From a virus (lineage: Duplodnaviria; Heunggongvirae; Uroviricota; Caudoviricetes), in IMG/VR virus record IMGVR_UViG_2597489870_000007: DNA of 48,718 nucleotides; one strand, given 5' to 3'. Each line of letters opens with the position of its first letter. Position 1 is the stretch's first letter. This document shows positions 42,116 through 48,718 of this stretch, one piece after another. The position numbers and the translations under genes are program-made. A model generated the notes under the pieces. It had not been told where the DNA came from. It made no database searches and saw only the letters and a program-made list of their open reading frames with translations.

Positions 42116-42468
42116 ATGTTTTCGAAATGGAAGGGTTTCTTCGCGGGAAATGTGTACCGCGAGATCTGAAAGTGAACGAAACAAATGCTGAGTACCTGGT
42201 ACGTAAATTCGACGCGCTTGAAGCTAAATGTGCGGCACTGGAAAACAAAATAATACCAGTGTCAACTGAACTGCCACCAGCAAATGAAAGTGTTCTGTTA
42301 TTTGATGCTAATGGAGAAGGCTGGCTGATTGGCTGGCGTTCTCTCTGGTACACCTGGGGACAAAAAGAAACCGGAGAATGGCAGTGGACATTTCAGGTCG
42401 GGGACCTTGAAAACTTCAATATCACTCACTGGGCAGTAATGCCCAAAGCGCCGGAGGCTGGAGCATAA
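42106..42468 (+). CDS. Hypothetical protein, YfdS-like, DUF551-like C-terminus
   Basis: 120-aa ORF ending ...NFNITHWAVMPKAPE, overlapping the previous gene. Confidence 0.5.
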   Translation: MRMNVFEMEGFLRGKCVPRDLKVNETNAEYLVRKFDALEAKCAALENKIIPVSTELPPANESVLLFDANGEGWLIGWRSLWYTWGQKETGEWQWTFQVGDLENFNITHWAVMPKAPEAGA

Positions 42469-43088
42469 TGACCACATTTACCAATAAAGAACTGATTAAA
42501 GAAATCAAAGAACGAATCAGCAGCCTAGAGGTTCGAGACGATATTGAGCGCCGTGCTTATGAAATTGCTCTGGCATCGCTGGAAGAGGAGCCGGTGGCAT
42601 GGCTGCATTCAGACAATGGCTTAGGTATTCCGGCAATAACCAGGAGCAAAAACATTGCTGACAGTTGGTTATCAATGGGCTGGTATGTTCAGCCGCTATA
42701 TATAGCCAAGCCAGTACTGGTGGTGCCAGATGCTCGTCCGTCTTTAAATAATGGCATAGTCGGTTTTGATGAAGGCTGGAACGCCTGCCGCGCCACCATG
42801 CTTCATGGTGCCAAACCTGTAAGCCAGACTTACAAGTTGAACAAGCTGTCGGGCAACTCTCCGGTAACTCAGGATGGTTGGATAAGCTGTAGTGAGCGAA
42901 TGCCGAACGATAAACAGTATGTTTGGTGTTGGGGTAAGTCTTACGGCTGGACTGAGTGCGATACCTTCGAAGGGTATTACGATTGGTCGAGAAACAAATG
43001 GTGGGCAGTTACTGACGATGGGGAAGAACCGGCATCGAAAGTAACCCACTGGATGCCGCTACCGGAGCCACCGCAGGAGGTGAAGTAA
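42468..43088 (+). CDS. DUF551-domain protein (206 aa)
   Basis: C-terminus ...KVTHWMPLPEPPQE is the characteristic DUF551 signature common in prophage early regions. Confidence 0.55.
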   Translation: MTTFTNKELIKEIKERISSLEVRDDIERRAYEIALASLEEEPVAWLHSDNGLGIPAITRSKNIADSWLSMGWYVQPLYIAKPVLVVPDARPSLNNGIVGFDEGWNACRATMLHGAKPVSQTYKLNKLSGNSPVTQDGWISCSERMPNDKQYVWCWGKSYGWTECDTFEGYYDWSRNKWWAVTDDGEEPASKVTHWMPLPEPPQEVK

Positions 43089-43282
43089 TGAACAACTTAA
43101 TGACAACTAAACAAGTCGCCGACTTCTGTGGCGTTTCAGTATCGACCGTTCTTCGCTGGAACAGCGTAAACAGGAGAACTGGCCAGAAATACAGGCCTGA
43201 CTTTCCAGATCCTGATATTAAATCCTGCCCAAATAAATGGGCATCACGCAAGATATACAGGTTTGCTGGAGTTATTGAGTGA
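43088..43282 (+). CDS. AlpA-family transcriptional regulator / excisionase-like
   Basis: 64-aa ORF MNNLMTTKQVADFCGVSVSTVLRWNSVNRRTG..., HTH of the AlpA/Xis type, last gene before the integrase-proximal locus. Confidence 0.7.
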   Translation: MNNLMTTKQVADFCGVSVSTVLRWNSVNRRTGQKYRPDFPDPDIKSCPNKWASRKIYRFAGVIE

Positions 43283-43484
43283 TGGGTATTAGCTCATATC
43301 AGAACTAATACCCATCAATGACACAGAGCCAACTACCCACCCTGTGTCAGGGGCTAACTTTTAACACCATAATTCACCGCTAGATAAAAACTGTATTGCA
43401 TTGCACGAGCGGCGCAGCATTATCAGTTAGAGTGTCTTTACCTTGTTAGGCTCCACAGTTCGCACTGTCCAACGCCTGTCACTT

Positions 43485-46400
43485 TCACACGCTGCGCCTT
43501 CGAGAATATTCATTTAATCGCTGATAACGAACATCTTGCTCCAGTTGTGGAGCAGCTTGAACAATTTGAAGCAAGCATTGCCCCAACTCTCGAGGCCCCC
43601 AGTGTTGTTCGGCAATCACGGCATTCAGCAGGGATAGAGCGTCCGCAGGATATCGGCTGCAAATATCTGATTCTAGCAAAAGGCGAACGTCGTAGCTAAG
43701 GTGTTCGAGCGGTTGCAGCCAGTCCTGCACCACTGCCAAAGCCGCCGGAAATTCACCTCGGGCAGCAATCACCATACGAGTCAACGATTCGGATATGCGT
43801 GGGGTGGCCAAGTTGCGGGACTTTGGCCAAACCTGTTGCCAAAATGGCTGGACACGATTTTTCCAATACTCCTCGCGCTGATCGCCCGCACCTTCAAGTG
43901 CCTGGTATAACGCCTGCGCGGCTACCTCCAGACCTTCTTGTGGAAGAGCACTAATTGCCGTTCGGAACTCCTCCACGGTATATCCCTCGGTAGGGCCCAG
44001 AGCTGCATAAGTCAGGAAAATAGCGAATTGCTGCCGGTGCTCGCCAAGATCAGAATAGTGATTGGCGCTCTCCAAAAAATCTGACTTGAAAGCTATCAGC
44101 AACGGTTCATACAGGCGTGGCGACCAGAGGAAGCCTTCCCACACAGCTTTTGCTTCGACGGGATTACTCCAAGCAAACAAGGGCAATAGATACTGTTCGG
44201 TCCAAGGTCGATCTACGCGAAAAAATGCGATCAGCCGCGACCCCAGCAACACCCGACCATGGCGGAATAGCTCTATCTGTACATTACACAATTTGGTGAA
44301 AAGTGTTTTCAATTCAACAGGAAGCAAATCATTGTCATTCGGGTTCTGTTTGAACCATAGGGTGATCAGTGATTGCGTGACATGCCCAATGGGATGATTG
44401 ATCGCCGTAGAAACAGGATCATAGGTCTCAATTCCGTTTCGAATGGTGCTAGACTCTGGGCTTGTTTCTATCATCAGAACCCGACGACAAAGGGCCAGTA
44501 GAATCTCCTCGTGGCAGAGGATGGTCTTCGAAGCCTCCTCCATCCACCAAGTGACAGCGTGGGAAATCTCCTGAAGTACTGCGTCAGGCATGTCAAGCAC
44601 CAACGGTGCGGCGTACCGCCACGAACGCAAAATCATCCCTGGTTCAGCCCAAGTCTGCAGAGCTTCACGCCACCGACCAACAGGCCACACATCATCTTGT
44701 GATAGTTTACGTAACGCATACAGACTGTGAAAAAAGCGCGTACGGCAAACATCACTCCAAGTGTCCTCATAGAAAGGCAGTCTTTCTGGCATAGGCTTTG
44801 CGAGCCATTGCACTAATTCCTGCCACTTACGGGGCGCAATGTCGACATCTATACTCTCCTCGAAGCCTGGATCACCGGTTCCGCTCATCCAGTGAGAGAA
44901 TTCATCACGCTCGTTGGTTGCCAGTTGCCATTTTGGGTATGCTGTGGATATTTCCGTCAAACGTGTAGCCGCAGACTCTCCCAAAACAAGGCCCGCTCCC
45001 CTGAGCTTCGCTAGACACAACCAGACGGAATGAGCCACCAAATAATGCCACCTGTCTGCTTCCAAATTATCCTCGTACATCTCGCGCGGAGGCCCTGCCA
45101 AGATAGCAGTTTCCAGACGCTCTTGTGCAATTCCTGTCAGATGTCGTCCCTGCAAAACAAACAGTCTGAATACCTCTCGCCGAGTATCCGTGGCCCACAA
45201 CCACCATGAACCGTCCTCTAACAACCAATTAACCCACCGCTCAGGTGGTATGCAGTTGTCTTGGCTTGCGGCAAACAGTGCCAGACGTTTGAAGGTGGGA
45301 TATGGCAACTCAAACCAATTCTGAGCAATGCGCGAGGCCTGATCGCTGTCTTTGGCTCGAACGGCTAACCATGAATCCCGAAGTAATTCAATCAGGCTCA
45401 CCCAATCGCGGAACCCCCGGTTCTGCCAGTGCGGAGTGATGGACGGCAAATCCCAATGCGAGCGGTCGTGACGATCGTCGGACTCTCCCAACTCCCGCAA
45501 CAAGTCCAGTGCATCACGCAACAACTGCTGAAAATCTTCCAACAGGTATGGCAAGGACGATTTCCATGACTCGTCAGCAAGGTCGAACAGGGTTGAACGT
45601 ACGTAATCAGCAGTCAGCACCAGCTCCCAATCCACCAATTGCTTGATTCGCAAGGGTTCATCAGTGCTGCTCGAATCGTCTTCACTATAGCGAAACGGCC
45701 GCCTCAACATAACCTTGGGAGAAAGCAACCCGCGTAACTCCAAGCGCAATGTAGTCGTCAAGCCTTCATTCTTTAAGCGGTTTTGCCAACGATACAAATC
45801 CAGGTTCTGCAATGGCGATTTCACACGACCACTAAGCAGAAGCCGCCATAAAGTAGACATAGGTGGACCAGGAATAGCCAGGGGGGAATGCAAGAGAATT
45901 TCATCTAACTCAGAAGTCTTACGCTCCCGCATCAGTGCTGCTAAGCGATCTAGTTCGCTCTCAATCAGAAACATCCAACGGTCGTGTATTTGTCCGCCGC
46001 GTTCAGCAATCCATATGATCAACCTAGGGTCGCCCAGATAACGAACTAGCCAACGGGCTATATGGGACATTACGTCATCCCATTTGCTAGCACTGACACA
46101 TCCAGAAACCAGCGACATCTGCGGGGCCAGCTCATAGGGCGCAGGACGCTGAACCAGACTGAATCGGAGTTTCGGGTCAATTTCGACATGCGGAGATACA
46201 CAAAAGCGTGGCAGATCGCTGTATTTAAATCGTTCGTCCGAGAAAGCTTTCAATAACCAATCCAGCGGCGGTGCAGGATTGAGTTCCGCAAAGCGTTTTG
46301 CTGGTAAACCTGATTTATCTGACAAGGCCCACAACATCCGACCAACGAAATCGTCCTGACGAGTGCTGTCCTGCGGGCGGGCCAGAGCATGTTTGACGAC

Positions 46401-47312
46401 TATAGCCTTTTTGCCCTGTATACCATCTCGATAAGTATCTGCCCAAGCGTGCAACGTTTGATGCAGCACTGAATGATCAGTGGAGCCCGCCGGTACGGTG
46501 TAAAGGATAGGAGTGACCCCTTTGGCCTCCCACTCGATGGCTTTCCGGTGCTCCTGCCCCGGCTCACACTCCCCCAGTGCCCATACTTGTGGTGTGACTT
46601 CACCGAGCCTCCGATCTGCTGCAAGCGCATCCATCATGTAGCGCAGTACCGGGTCGTTGATGCTGTAGCCAACGAAGCAGACCACATAGTTACGAAATAA
46701 CTCACTCACAAAGCGAGCTGCCCAACGCTCAGTGAGATAAGCCAAGCCAAAGTCACCGCTGGTAACAACCAGACGATTCAGGGCAGTATCATCCGCCTTT
46801 TCCGGTAACAGCCCATGCAGGTATACAAGTCCATCCCAGCGGCTGTTTTTTGGAATTGGCAGCATCGGCGCTACATAGGCCTGAAAAGCCTGGCCTGTAC
46901 GTTTAGCTGCCACATGAAAGAGACGGTCAAAGTTGGTAGTGACCAATCGAAGGGCACCCTCGCGGCTACGGGCTAAACGTAACAGCGCCGCCTGAGTATC
47001 AATAGCGCCCCTACGACGGAGCTTTGGCTTAAGGGCTTTTTCCAACGCGCGTCGGACGGCTATACGCTGCCCTGGTAAGCGCCGTTCCAGCAAATCTAAT
47101 GTGCCGTCAAATTGCCCACGCTCGAAAACCTCACGCTCAATTTCTGAAAGTGTTGTTCCGTTCCTCTGGTAAATTAGTTCTACCAACCCTTTGAAACCAG
47201 GTAAACCAGCAGGGTAGGAAATGCCTGCTCCACAGAAGAACACAACGCGCCCTTCCTCGTGCGCCTGCAAAAACTCATCAGGAATATCAGGGCCGTTGGT
47301 AATGAATTGCAT
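43485..47312 (-). CDS. Large SIR2-domain protein (1,275 aa), candidate single-gene antiphage defence (DSR-like)
   Basis: Intact ORF with RBS GGAGGA. N-terminal 260 aa carry SIR2 signatures: VVFFCGAGISYPAGLPGF, TTNFDRL, VYLHGLL, CFVGYSINDP. The remaining 1,000 aa are Leu/Trp-rich with no Walker A motif. Sits between int and xis. Confidence 0.8.
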   Translation of the reverse strand: MQFITNGPDIPDEFLQAHEEGRVVFFCGAGISYPAGLPGFKGLVELIYQRNGTTLSEIEREVFERGQFDGTLDLLERRLPGQRIAVRRALEKALKPKLRRRGAIDTQAALLRLARSREGALRLVTTNFDRLFHVAAKRTGQAFQAYVAPMLPIPKNSRWDGLVYLHGLLPEKADDTALNRLVVTSGDFGLAYLTERWAARFVSELFRNYVVCFVGYSINDPVLRYMMDALAADRRLGEVTPQVWALGECEPGQEHRKAIEWEAKGVTPILYTVPAGSTDHSVLHQTLHAWADTYRDGIQGKKAIVVKHALARPQDSTRQDDFVGRMLWALSDKSGLPAKRFAELNPAPPLDWLLKAFSDERFKYSDLPRFCVSPHVEIDPKLRFSLVQRPAPYELAPQMSLVSGCVSASKWDDVMSHIARWLVRYLGDPRLIIWIAERGGQIHDRWMFLIESELDRLAALMRERKTSELDEILLHSPLAIPGPPMSTLWRLLLSGRVKSPLQNLDLYRWQNRLKNEGLTTTLRLELRGLLSPKVMLRRPFRYSEDDSSSTDEPLRIKQLVDWELVLTADYVRSTLFDLADESWKSSLPYLLEDFQQLLRDALDLLRELGESDDRHDRSHWDLPSITPHWQNRGFRDWVSLIELLRDSWLAVRAKDSDQASRIAQNWFELPYPTFKRLALFAASQDNCIPPERWVNWLLEDGSWWLWATDTRREVFRLFVLQGRHLTGIAQERLETAILAGPPREMYEDNLEADRWHYLVAHSVWLCLAKLRGAGLVLGESAATRLTEISTAYPKWQLATNERDEFSHWMSGTGDPGFEESIDVDIAPRKWQELVQWLAKPMPERLPFYEDTWSDVCRTRFFHSLYALRKLSQDDVWPVGRWREALQTWAEPGMILRSWRYAAPLVLDMPDAVLQEISHAVTWWMEEASKTILCHEEILLALCRRVLMIETSPESSTIRNGIETYDPVSTAINHPIGHVTQSLITLWFKQNPNDNDLLPVELKTLFTKLCNVQIELFRHGRVLLGSRLIAFFRVDRPWTEQYLLPLFAWSNPVEAKAVWEGFLWSPRLYEPLLIAFKSDFLESANHYSDLGEHRQQFAIFLTYAALGPTEGYTVEEFRTAISALPQEGLEVAAQALYQALEGAGDQREEYWKNRVQPFWQQVWPKSRNLATPRISESLTRMVIAARGEFPAALAVVQDWLQPLEHLSYDVRLLLESDICSRYPADALSLLNAVIAEQHWGPRELGQCLLQIVQAAPQLEQDVRYQRLNEYSRRRSV

Positions 47313-47494
47313 TCCTTTTCCTCCTATCCAATGTGCACGTTCATTCGAGTAAATGAAGGCAAGGGGTTACATCTTATTATACCGACCGTGCAAATCCGGC
47401 TTCCTAGCAAGCTACTTTACTTGCCAACTCATAATGTCCGAACTCCGAACAAAGCGGACTGCTAGATTTGATTGCGTTCTAGCTACGCAAAATA

Positions 47495-48718
47495 TCATTT
47501 CGAGCCTGAACGAGTACAAGTAACAATCGATTCAACTCTCTCCCACCATGCCTGGTAGGCTTTACGCTGTTCTTCTAGATAATCACTCTTGTCATAAACT
47601 TGCCATACACCTGGCAGTTTATGACCGAGCATTATTTCAGCAATATGAGGCGCAGTAAGATCAGAAAAGTTTGTTCGTGCTGTTCGTCTCAAATCATGAA
47701 GAGACCAGTGAGGAAATTGATACCCCAAACGCCGCCATGCGTACTGCATTAAATTGTAAGGCAGCGACTGCAATGATGTCCGACCAACTGGTTCCCTGCT
47801 TCCTTCCTTAGTAAAAAGCATATCGGAACCGTTGTTCATAGAGATAACGTATTTTATAAGCTCTTCAACCGGTTCAATAATGGGCCGCTTTAGCGGTTCG
47901 CCTGTTATATCCCCTGTCTTATGTCGTTCTGGTGGTACAGTCCATATTTTATTAATGAAATCAAAATCGTCCACCTTGGCAGTAATTAGCTCTGAACTAC
48001 GGCAACCAAAATGCAGCAATAGTTTAATGAAGGCCCGGTATTTAGGAACCATTCGAGAACCATCGATCGCAGCATAAAGGATTTTAATTTCATCATGTGT
48101 CAGAAACCGTTTCTTCTGACCTTTACGGATATCCATATCTTTACCCGTGATATCCGACAGCGGGCGAGTTTCAATGAGCTTTCTCTTATACGCCCAGACA
48201 TGGGCCTGCTTTGCGTTAATTAGCAATCGGTCTGCTATTGCTGGAGTCTTAGTGCTAAGAGGCTCCAGGACTTCTAACCAATCATGCAATGTAGCTGCAT
48301 CGTGAGGGATATTCCCGATTTTAGAGAACAGGTGCAGCTCAAACGAGCGGAGTATCTGTTCAGAACCTTTTTTATTTTTTACACAATATGCTTCATACCA
48401 AGCACGGATCACAGATTCTACCGTCATGGCTTCAGTAGCTTTACGTTTTTCTGCCAGCTTGACCAATCGTGGATTGCGGTTTGACTCGAGTTCACCACGA
48501 AGACGGATAACTTCTTCTCTGGCCTCTTTTAGTCCAGTTGCCGGGTAAGTTCCGATATCAAGACGCTCACCTTTCCCCGCCCACTGATAACGATATTGGA
48601 ACACTACGCGACCTTTCGGTGATACTCTAACAGACAGGCCATCACGATCGGATTTAACCAAAACCTTATCACGTTCCTTTCCAACGACTGAACGCAACCA
48701 CGCATCAGACAGCGCCAT
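47495..48718 (-). CDS. int: Tyrosine integrase (P4-like family)
   Basis: 407-aa ORF starting MALSDAWLRSVVGKERDKV with catalytic-region motifs (HDLRRT, MLGHKLPGVWQVYDK); start codon is the last three bases of the window, so att lies outside it. Confidence 0.9.
   Translation of the reverse strand: MALSDAWLRSVVGKERDKVLVKSDRDGLSVRVSPKGRVVFQYRYQWAGKGERLDIGTYPATGLKEAREEVIRLRGELESNRNPRLVKLAEKRKATEAMTVESVIRAWYEAYCVKNKKGSEQILRSFELHLFSKIGNIPHDAATLHDWLEVLEPLSTKTPAIADRLLINAKQAHVWAYKRKLIETRPLSDITGKDMDIRKGQKKRFLTHDEIKILYAAIDGSRMVPKYRAFIKLLLHFGCRSSELITAKVDDFDFINKIWTVPPERHKTGDITGEPLKRPIIEPVEELIKYVISMNNGSDMLFTKEGSREPVGRTSLQSLPYNLMQYAWRRLGYQFPHWSLHDLRRTARTNFSDLTAPHIAEIMLGHKLPGVWQVYDKSDYLEEQRKAYQAWWERVESIVTCTRSGSK

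Follow-up and report, generated by a model that had tools for sequence, protein, structure and literature searches.

The palindrome at positions 43280–43317 of the viral DNA analyzed here (IMG/VR record IMGVR_UViG_2597489870_000007, Caudoviricetes; the whole stretch of 48,718 nucleotides (nt) is referred to as the window) is the first of three hairpins (H1, H2, and H3) in a conserved border element of approximately 100 nt, which is located right after the stop codon of an excisionase-like (xis) gene. The window carries an unusually perfect copy of H1 among its relatives. The element delimits a slot for variable anti-phage genes, occupied in the window by the SIR2 gene dsr1, and marks such slots in at least two unrelated families of Escherichia coli temperate phages. 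Based on its sequence, H1 is tentatively regarded as a hairpin of the repetitive extragenic palindromic (REP) kind, which most likely would fix RNA 3′ ends and insulate convergent transcription. The features of the region are as follows:

43088–43282, plus strand: xis-like gene, 64 amino acids (aa), last gene of the early-left block; its stop codon is the start of the palindrome
43280–43317: hairpin H1, the palindrome noted initially; 13 perfect base pairs (bp) or 16 bp with a mismatch, loop of 6–12 nt
43319–43349: hairpin H2, TGACACAG/CTGTGTCA around a C-rich loop
43335–43358: H3, degenerate copy of a 24-nt palindrome, placed by alignment, by homology read in a Pantoea plasmid, and by junction mapping
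43271–43373, plus strand: whole left border element, by covariance model (79 bits, E 9e-17)
43485–47312, minus strand: cargo gene dsr1, 1275 aa, SIR2_2 domain (open reading frame (ORF), Pfam, PADLOC, and RefSeq)
47436–47459: R1, right-border 24-nt palindrome (GTCCG...CGGAC), related to H3, probably in inverted orientation
47472–47490: R2, small hairpin (TTGCGT-TCTAGCT-ACGCAA) immediately ahead of the stop codon of the integrase gene (int), in some relatives only
47495–48718, minus strand: integrase, 407 aa, with Arm-DNA-bind_3, Phage_int_M, and Phage_integrase domains

The palindrome H1 and its fold

H1 consists of a left arm TGATGGGTATTAG (43280–43292), a loop CTCATATCAGAA (43293–43304), and a right arm CTAATACCCATCA (43305–43317). 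This direct reading agrees with the initial annotation of a perfect 13-bp inverted repeat with a 12-nt loop that overlaps the xis stop, as its first three nucleotides are the TGA stop codon (43280–43282) of the 64-aa ORF. The stem can be extended to 16 pairs with one C·A mismatch and a 6-nt loop; on the minus strand, this mismatch is a G·U wobble, giving 16 contiguous pairs there and 13 + 2 on the plus strand. H1 is the only perfect stem of at least 13 bp with a loop of 3–20 nt in the whole window and is improbable by chance, with a perfect 13-bp stem reached in one of 60 first-order Markov simulations of the window. The hairpin energy is −20.0 kcal/mol on the plus strand and −24.9 kcal/mol on the minus strand, and the fold of the 121-nt region relative to shuffled sequences has z-scores of −3.7 and −5.7, respectively.

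A classical intrinsic terminator, already discounted when the palindrome was first described for its lack of a T-tract on either strand, is ruled out by the sequence. Five of the 13 pairs are G-C, so the stem is A/T-rich and not the short G+C-rich stem of such terminators; the tails after H1 have no T-run (plus strand, ATGACACAGAGCC; minus strand, CTCAATAACTCC), and the U-rich tract that should follow 0–2 nt 3′ of the stem is found neither in the plus tail ATGACACAGAG nor in the minus one. The terminator scan of the window did not call H1 and called no intrinsic terminator for xis or dsr1 in the interval between them. The search of positions 42900–43700 with the Rfam 15 covariance models returned only chance-level matches to small nucleolar RNAs (E > 0.7), and the Rfam search of related loci gave nothing at the border element.

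The three-hairpin border element in lambdoid relatives

The 100 nt past the xis stop were taken from approximately 90 loci and gave approximately 35 distinct sequences, alignable over approximately 95–105 nt, all with one layout: the stop codon, H1, the triplet ATG, H2, and H3. The H1 family has an outer stem of ATGTGT/ACACAT or ATGGGTA/TACCCAT, an inner stem of AGCTCA/TGAGCT, and a GATG-like loop; the H2 family is composed of GGCACAGAG...CTCTGTGCC around a conserved C-rich loop, CCAAACCTAATCTGAC; and the H3 family has the 24-nt consensus GTCCGCTCT-GTGCCA-AGAGCGGAC. H2 and H3 are mutually exclusive because the left arm of H3 overlaps the right arm of H2. In the window, the H2 stem of 8 bp is formed by TGACACAG (43319–43326) and CTGTGTCA (43342–43349), with a loop approximately 11 nt shorter than that of relatives owing to a deletion; H3 is degenerate, as only CCCTG/CAGGG (43340–43352), overlapping the 3′ arm of H2, still pairs, and the left cargo junction coincides with the inner edge of H3. 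The initial annotation listed a second, 7-bp stem (GACACAG...CTGTGTC) after the palindrome. This stem is present but has 8 bp, and the two structures, both real, are not separate features but parts of the one element of approximately 100 nt that delimits the defense slot.

A covariance model built from 30 lambdoid variants found a sole plus-strand match in the window (43271–43373, 79 bits, E 9e-17), which is full-length and starts at the stop codon of a backbone gene; this score is partly circular, as the window sequence is inside the training alignment. The P2-type loci described below, which are independent of the training set, score 43–85 bits. There is one copy of H1 per locus, only in the border element next to hotspot cargo, and H1-like hairpins lie next to xis in approximately 27–36 variants independently of the cargo. 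The window belongs to a subfamily with a continuous H1 that includes the loci L008, L051, and L053, with 14–15 bp and a CATA loop, of which L053 is a dsr1 allele with an 86%-identical flank. Similarly, L010 has the same continuous stem with one mismatch, ordinary H2 and H3, and an AriA-like ATPase as cargo. Compared with these loci, the changes TAA→TGA and TCT→TCA in the window add two base pairs at the stem base, while its apical changes keep pairing only as G·U on the minus strand. Of 5,426 complete E. coli genomes, 66 carry the exact window allele, in each case together with dsr1, and these copies are at least 99% identical; dsr1 occurs in 74 E. coli genomes, all chromosomal.

Two other functions of the element were considered and rejected. 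The ATG between H1 and H2 does not open a conserved mini-ORF, as the lengths differ among variants and one variant lacks the ATG; a promoter inside the element was dismissed because the consensus, examined by eye, has no convincing −35/−10 pair, with a single weak plus-strand match at 43344–43373. Occurrence of the same palindrome elsewhere was likewise discarded, since a scan of viral contigs for TGGGTATTA...TAATACCCA gave this prophage family and unrelated AT-rich terminators. The latter come from metagenomic viral contigs (L097–L160; AT-rich and unrelated), in which hairpins TGGGTATTA-N6-TAATACCCA have runs of A and of T at their flanks; approximately 14 contigs share one 24-nt form, and these hairpins are apparently ordinary terminators of another phage group.

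Conservation of base pairing

The pairing was assessed on a model-fitted alignment of 36 distinct rows with 500 shuffles and, separately, in a re-registered tabulation made by hand. In the 36 rows, 78% of the pairing cells can pair, compared with 28–42% for slid partners. The covariation score is 0.174 (0.143 for shuffles), and 29 cells are changed on both sides (14.7 in shuffles); both values exceed those of all 500 shuffles. In the tabulation, double-sided changes in H1 were found at columns 15–42 (T-A in 10 and G-C in eight) and 17–40 (T-A in 20 and C-G in three), and those in H2 at 52–93 (G-C in 16 and A-T in seven), 53–92, and 55–90. Where column 42 changes, the long H1 still pairs, whereas a competing short hairpin, AGATGTG/CACATCT, breaks. 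Most variants fold better than their shuffles, with a mean z of −3.4 on the plus strand and −4.1 on the minus strand. It appears from these alignments that structure is conserved rather than sequence. The left arm of H1, GTATTAGCTCA, is fairly conserved and the right arm less so, the spacing of the arms is 4–12 nt among relatives, and the stability of H1 ranges from approximately −2 to −25 kcal/mol across variants.

The position relative to the stop codon is also constant. Each of the 27 H1 variants has a hairpin whose start lies 0–10 nt from the xis stop; in 10 variants, this start falls inside the stop codon itself. The pair made by the last stop-codon base is A-U in 33 of the 36 rows. Across this set and that of the P2-type loci described below, 78–82% of the cells pair, compared with 22–55% in slid controls.

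The cargo slot and its borders

The palindrome lies between the convergent genes xis (plus strand) and the SIR2 gene (minus strand), as was initially annotated. The latter is Dsr1, with a Pfam SIR2_2 match (E 9e-23), a full-length PADLOC call, and an agreeing RefSeq annotation. In relatives, the xis–int interval encodes AbiU/AIPR, BovA, AriA/OLD-like ATPase, a DUF4365-TPR protein, and unassigned proteins, on either strand; 17 cargo groups of 1.1–4.2 kb were found in 75 loci. Between loci with different cargo, the shared sequence stops at most approximately 93 nt past the xis stop, i.e., 0–9 nt beyond H3 (one pair reaches 104), and on the right side, it resumes at most 61 nt before the int stop. 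The variable defense cargo runs from the inner edge of H3 to R1 before int. R1 is followed by CTGTCA, which holds the int stop in many relatives, and the right border encodes the C-terminal residues and the stop codon of the integrase, with variable tails such as TCTRSGSK, TCTGSDSN, LISNGQFA, and others. No concerted similarity of H3 and R1 within loci was seen by eye.

No empty slot was found in E. coli among 1,813 genomes with a match to a chimeric query of the left and right borders (borders within approximately 700 nt), and pieces of the xis/int family are present in approximately one-third of complete E. coli genomes. In Trabulsiella guamensis (L012, ~6190), xis and int converge with 3′ ends that overlap by 11 nt, without cargo or hairpins, and the same direct xis–int arrangement was read after the xis stop in Pantoea stewartii (L011, ~6190). 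Compared with these two, the E. coli loci contain an insertion made up of the element and cargo, which has taken the place of the final codons of xis and int as well.

The initial annotation linked the palindrome to the SIR2 gene and proposed to look for it in relatives without that gene. This comparison goes against the link, as homologous hairpins come after xis irrespective of the cargo, a near-perfect copy stands beside the AriA-like ATPase of L010, and the dsr1 homologs on Pantoea and Shewanella plasmids (77–80% nucleotide identity, aligned from approximately 13 nt before the stop to approximately 80 nt upstream of the start) have no palindrome. The H1+H2 model gave no match on these plasmid dsr1 loci. 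A palindrome forming part of a dsr1 module was therefore rejected, the plasmid homology being composed of the gene, a short upstream stretch, and the 3′ flank up to H3, without H1 or H2; because dsr1 is found on other replicons without H1, the palindrome belongs to the border and not to the cargo.

Occurrence in P2-like phages, islands, and plasmids

A scan of viral contigs for the exact H3 site gave 45 loci with 42 significant matches to the model, most of them full-length including H1 (43–85 bits). Approximately 39 of the 42 abut the stop codon of a P2-type tail-fiber assembly gene (product ending in EWPEMPQ), while the others abut genes with products ending in ATKVSAQ or WPSPPEV, plus one lambdoid locus. 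For instance, a complete three-hairpin element follows the tail-fiber assembly stop at L189 2489–2595, and the stop-codon position of the element is thus common to two phage families. On the P2 map, this gene lies at the end of the late tail-fiber operon. The tail-fiber-assembly/sheath interval is taken here to be the Z/fun variable locus of that map, one hotspot of Rousset et al. (2022).

Several slot proteins were noted in passing. The xis–int slot encodes proteins of 515 aa (L004/L005 7207–8754) and 239 aa (L006 6257–6976) that have no Pfam or PADLOC match, and the P2-type slot of L189 (2971–5557) encodes proteins of 311 aa and 288 aa; all four are candidate uncharacterized defense genes.

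Parts of the element are more widely distributed. On the Pantoea plasmid, the H3 palindrome, there GTCC(A/G)CTTTGTGCCAGAAGCGGAC, stands on either side of dsr1, and window positions 43335–43358 together with the stretch on to dsr1 are homologous, by reading, to the Pantoea dsr1 flank; H3-type palindromes are absent from the Shewanella dsr1 locus. The H3 palindrome occurs at 3,322 places on 2,223 enterobacterial plasmids, with up to 16 per Pantoea megaplasmid, where the copies sit between ordinary genes, and at 3,403 places in 2,348 E. coli genomes, with one to five per genome in contexts that, where seen, are all mobile elements. The 24-nt palindromes have a constant 9-6-9 geometry in every scanned copy, and the R1-type variant has the spacer TCGCTC. 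Among the sampled E. coli contexts, CP4-type islands beside a YeeP-like GTPase gene carry H3 sites, with two inverted sites around two genes in L164 and the order site-gene-site-gene-site in L165 (3510–5443); L168 is the same type of CP4-type island on a plasmid, and in a P2-like prophage, the H3 site adjoins an ATPase and SIR2 pair. The island copies match the model over H2–H3 only (E 1e-7 and 4e-6), with H1 absent, and the border element is absent from CP4-57 of K-12. In L205 (2245–5310), four one-gene modules in either orientation are separated by 66-nt units, each composed of an R1-type palindrome, an 18-nt linker (CTTCAGCTCAG...), and an H3-type palindrome. Two further sites are as follows:

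L162, 1356 and 5495: further 24-nt palindrome sites

A possible RNA 3′-end and insulator hairpin

Of the functions considered, that of a REP-like RNA 3′-end and insulator hairpin is the most likely for H1, and it is put forward tentatively on the strength of sequence comparison. The initial annotation had suggested an RNA stem limiting convergent transcription into the SIR2 gene; an RNA stem at a convergent junction is the best reading, but its tie to the SIR2 gene was wrong.

When early-left transcription passes through xis, H1 would fold as a stem-loop of −20 to −25 kcal/mol, and since it is a palindrome, the same fold would form on the opposite strand when dsr1 transcription leaves the cargo. 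H1 lacks a U-tract and so would not terminate by the intrinsic mechanism; another 3′-end determinant is needed for xis and dsr1, as no intrinsic terminator was called for either. Factor-dependent termination may come first, in the untranslated C-rich stretch just downstream of H1, and H1 would then block 3′-to-5′ exonucleases and fix stable transcript ends in the manner of a REP-type 3′ structure. The plus-strand loop of H2 is C-rich and G-poor (7.4 C and 3.5 G in 24 nt, with C exceeding G in 29 of 35 variants), which fits a putative Rho-loading stretch. Together, H1, H2, and H3 would keep the transcription of the phage operon and that of the cargo and int from colliding. Unchecked read-through from dsr1 would go antisense via xis toward the repressor gene, and that from pL would enter dsr1 and int in the antisense direction at the very time that Int is required. 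H1 may also reduce Xis output by hindering terminating ribosomes, given its start within the stop codon.

The border element is always located where a backbone operon ends on its 3′ side, with cargo of either orientation beside it. This cargo has to be expressed in the lysogen and is in many cases toxic. REP hairpins are documented as stabilizers of mRNA 3′ ends (PMC12306157, citing Newbury, 1987), and REPs within approximately 15 nt of stop codons are linked to ribosome stalling (PMC12306157, citing Liang, Rudd and Deutscher, 2015). Most repeats of the REP class follow coding regions, and action as RNA is plausible for them (PMC3733652).

Several observations weigh against this function. The number of pairs that vary on both sides is no greater than in shuffles, the covariation is moderate, the variants are phylogenetically related with few independent events, and the P2-type set is too invariant to add covariation support. 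In several variants, H1 is weak (−2 to −8 kcal/mol), and template switching during replication can perfect palindromes without selection. The mismatches in H1 have no strand preference (38 G·U and 35 A·C), and minus-strand energies are lower in 30 of 33 variants, which is unexpected for a function purely in xis mRNA; neither the z-scores nor the wobble counts discriminate the strand of action. The C-richness is modest, with 22 C and 14 G in 78 nt of the window. Finally, it is from the DNA that we infer transcription through the element, the positions of the 3′ ends, and the effects on read-through and on the Xis level.

Alternative explanations

The main alternative, which is considered unlikely for H1, is a border or recombination element acting at the DNA level, in which a cassette system moving defense genes would have its ends or sites in H1-H2-H3 on the left side and in R1 on the right side, and H1 would be a terminal hairpin for a recombinase or transposase on single-stranded DNA or a cruciform, or a homology patch. 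This would account for the 17 cargo groups that fill exactly the H3–R1 interval, the border including H1 at the stop codon of another gene in unrelated P2-like phages, the arrays of one-gene modules with R1-linker-H3 separators (L205 and L165), the Pantoea plasmid dsr1 between two H3 palindromes, the 9-6-9 geometry kept in all scanned copies, and the xis–int pairs of Trabulsiella and Pantoea that converge directly without any element. However, the analysis identified no recombinase dedicated to these sites, the dsr1 locus of Shewanella is without palindromes, the Pantoea megaplasmid copies of H3 between ordinary genes are like generic REPs, and the conserved xis and int flanks already permit homologous exchange. 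The junction is approximately 50 nt away from H1, which lies outside it and does not occur in the island copies; H1 therefore need not be a site even if H3 and R1 are, and a recombination role suits these two more than H1.

The perfect stem could also be that of a selfish or neutral REP-like hitch-hiker, improved by quasipalindrome “correction” through template switching in replication, an origin that we likewise think improbable, though deserving of weight. The relatives are imperfect and the clustered changes of the window (TAA→TGA and TCT→TCA) make or keep pairs, the stability of H1 varies widely among variants, H3 behaves as a dispersed repeat, and the 66 E. coli copies, at least 99% identical, carry no independent evidence of selection. 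A neutral repeat is harder to reconcile with the hairpin potential at the stop codon, which persists over approximately 30 diverged variants and two phage families, with the 78–82% of cells that pair compared with 22–55% in slid controls, and with the chimeric-query search, which returned no E. coli slot lacking the element.

A wider form of the cassette idea is given a somewhat lower probability than either of these. In it, the element of approximately 100 nt and the 9-6-9 palindromes would be the ends or sites of an undescribed system that shuttles single anti-phage genes among the lambdoid xis–int slot, the P2-like tail-fiber-assembly/sheath slot, CP4-type islands, and enterobacterial plasmids and builds arrays; H1 would be its outermost left hairpin, and the element would supply the stop codon of the gene behind which it inserts.

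Tight limitation of excisionase is a general need of temperate phages, and H1 might serve as a translational attenuator of Xis, a hairpin in the stop codon stalling the terminating ribosome and leading to mRNA cleavage, tagging by transfer-messenger RNA, and low Xis. The stop-codon position described above (0–10 nt away in 27 of 27 variants and inside in 10) is in its favor, and the mechanism is documented for REPs (PMC12306157, citing Liang et al., 2015); this function can coexist with the RNA 3′-end one. By itself it is doubtful to a greater degree than the foregoing, as the P2-like copies follow a tail-fiber assembly gene, where limiting the product has no obvious rationale, and many variants have weak stems.

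The last two alternatives have very little probability. Binding of H1 DNA by a dimeric protein (Xis, Int, a repressor, or a host factor) would explain the perfect dyad symmetry and the fairly conserved left arm GTATTAGCTCA; this proposal of the initial annotation found no support, as the arms change together, their spacing and hence the loop is 4–12 nt, the half-sites are unequally conserved, which is not the pattern of an operator, the palindrome lies 4–5 kb from attP and far from promoters, and the element is also present in P2-like phages, which have different regulators. Typical RNase III substrates span approximately two helical turns, and a processing site of the lambda sib kind, destabilizing xis or dsr1 mRNA with the hairpin or a sense/antisense duplex as substrate, is scarcely to be expected: there are 16 contiguous pairs on the minus strand and 13 + 2 on the plus strand, with convergent transcription across the element, but the stem is shorter than such substrates, those of most relatives are much shorter and interrupted, and unlike sib, the element is not parted from its gene by integration.

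Comparison with known elements

REPs are short imperfect palindromes without U-tracts that lie just downstream of coding regions and form stable RNA hairpins. The border element resembles them and the bacterial interspersed mosaic elements (BIMEs) in these features, as H1, H2, H3, and R1 are all located in untranslated gaps that follow the stop codons of xis and int, the R1-linker-H3 junction unit has the architecture of an inverted REP dimer, and H3 is dispersed on plasmids. Known roles of REPs include mRNA 3′ protection, transcription attenuation, and ribosome stalling close to stop codons (PMC12306157; PMC3733652). Unlike REPs, H1 is not dispersed, its sequence is unrelated to the canonical E. 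coli REP, and the H3 part has only one to five copies per E. coli genome. Some copies of H3 and R1 read CGTCC...GGACG and others do not, and H1 has no GTAG or CGTC tag; REP families with CGTC have been reported mainly outside enterobacteria (PMC3733652).

The tI/sib hairpin of lambda is similar in being at the end of the early-left recombination transcript, an analogous place in the lambdoid genome, and acts after transcription on the stability of xis/int mRNA. The lambda structure exists as tI, with a U-tract, and as sib, the extended form for RNase III, and lies beyond attP, so that integration disconnects it. Here, by contrast, int is transcribed convergently from its own promoter, attP lies past int on the other side, and the hairpin overlaps the xis stop; the place beyond attP does not apply, with the attachment (att) core approximately 230 bp upstream of int and the prophage junction next to yjjG. 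There is also no sequence similarity and no Rfam match.

The P2-like and P4-like defense hotspots share the fixed slot between conserved phage genes with alternative anti-phage systems (Rousset et al., 2022; PMC9122126), and the border element is present at the P2 tail-fiber-assembly/sheath locus. The text of PMC9122126 does not mention any hairpin, palindrome, terminator, or intergenic element, and neither the lambdoid xis–int slot nor the shared border element is described there. Integron attC sites and the pdif sites of Acinetobacter are comparable in the single-gene modules between short palindromic sites, the arrays (L205 and L165), and the adjacent tyrosine recombinase gene, whereas the present sites are much shorter than attC and the modules carry expression signals of their own and lie in either orientation. 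No IntI-type integrase is present, the integrase having the phage domains listed above, and cargo lies on either strand; H3 is often followed by GTT(G/A), but the next bases do not fit the RRRY of the attC core GTTRRRY, and the site is only 24 nt long. The boundary sequences of lambdoid morons are another likeness, with accessory genes between backbone operons, short conserved flanks, and transcription signals. Classical morons have a canonical promoter and an intrinsic terminator, while the conserved flank here is a three-hairpin element without U-tracts that is common to an unrelated phage family.

The border element thus resembles REP/BIME and occupies the place of lambda tI/sib but is a member of neither by the features tested. 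It is of the kind of extragenic palindromic 3′ elements and marks defense-hotspot borders across unrelated phages and matches no Rfam family, and full-text literature searches, including searches with the element's own sequence strings, found no description of it.

Gene content and other features of the window

The window is a lambdoid prophage integrated beside yjjG, identical to a prophage of E. coli AMSHJX01 and also identical to part of an Stx2c phage record. The gene order is the early-left genes (yfdP/Q/R-like, DUF551, and xis) on the plus strand, the cargo, int on the minus strand, and the att core approximately 230 bp upstream of int. With the att core on the far side of int, the palindrome lies 4–5 kb from attP, and a role of the palindrome as attP or as an arm site was rejected because the att core sits upstream of int. 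The integrase at the right end of the window is of the P4 type; the window ends with the integrase ATG (48716–48718), and the int promoter and att region (approximately 230 bp further in relatives) are outside it. The 64-aa protein has only sub-threshold Pfam matches to HTH_17/MerR and is annotated as excisionase in phages cdtI and 2H10.

Some annotation differences were noted. The xis ORF (43088–43282) is unannotated by RefSeq/PGAP in the identical E. coli locus (L001 8001–8815), and the DUF551 gene is split by RefSeq/PGAP into two “incomplete” pseudogene fragments, although positions 42468–43088 of the window form one intact ORF of 206 aa. The longest inverted repeat of the window, at 26418–26474 near putative packaging genes, has 26-nt arms with 85% complementarity and a 5-nt loop; its left arm ends in an A-run and its right arm begins with a T-run, and it looks like a classical bidirectional terminator. 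In addition, Rfam matches above the gathering score to C4 antisense RNA and IsrK were found in related loci (L002 880–1068, L008 1109–1297, L062 24–212, and L006 70–146), near an ash-family gene in both annotated loci (L002 and L008).

Implications for defense hotspots

Prophage defense hotspots are a major source of new immune systems. The single palindrome alone is of modest interest, while the border element to which it belongs merits follow-up. It provides a searchable signature for the upstream edge of defense slots, consisting of the covariance model, the 24-nt palindrome, and the junction unit, which is common to two unrelated temperate-phage families and partly to genomic islands and plasmids, and which can be used to mine cargo such as the unassigned proteins in L004, L006, and L189. 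If the element is a recombination site, it would represent a new mechanism of cassette exchange; if it is an RNA insulator, it would explain how toxic abortive-infection genes reside between strongly transcribed phage operons.

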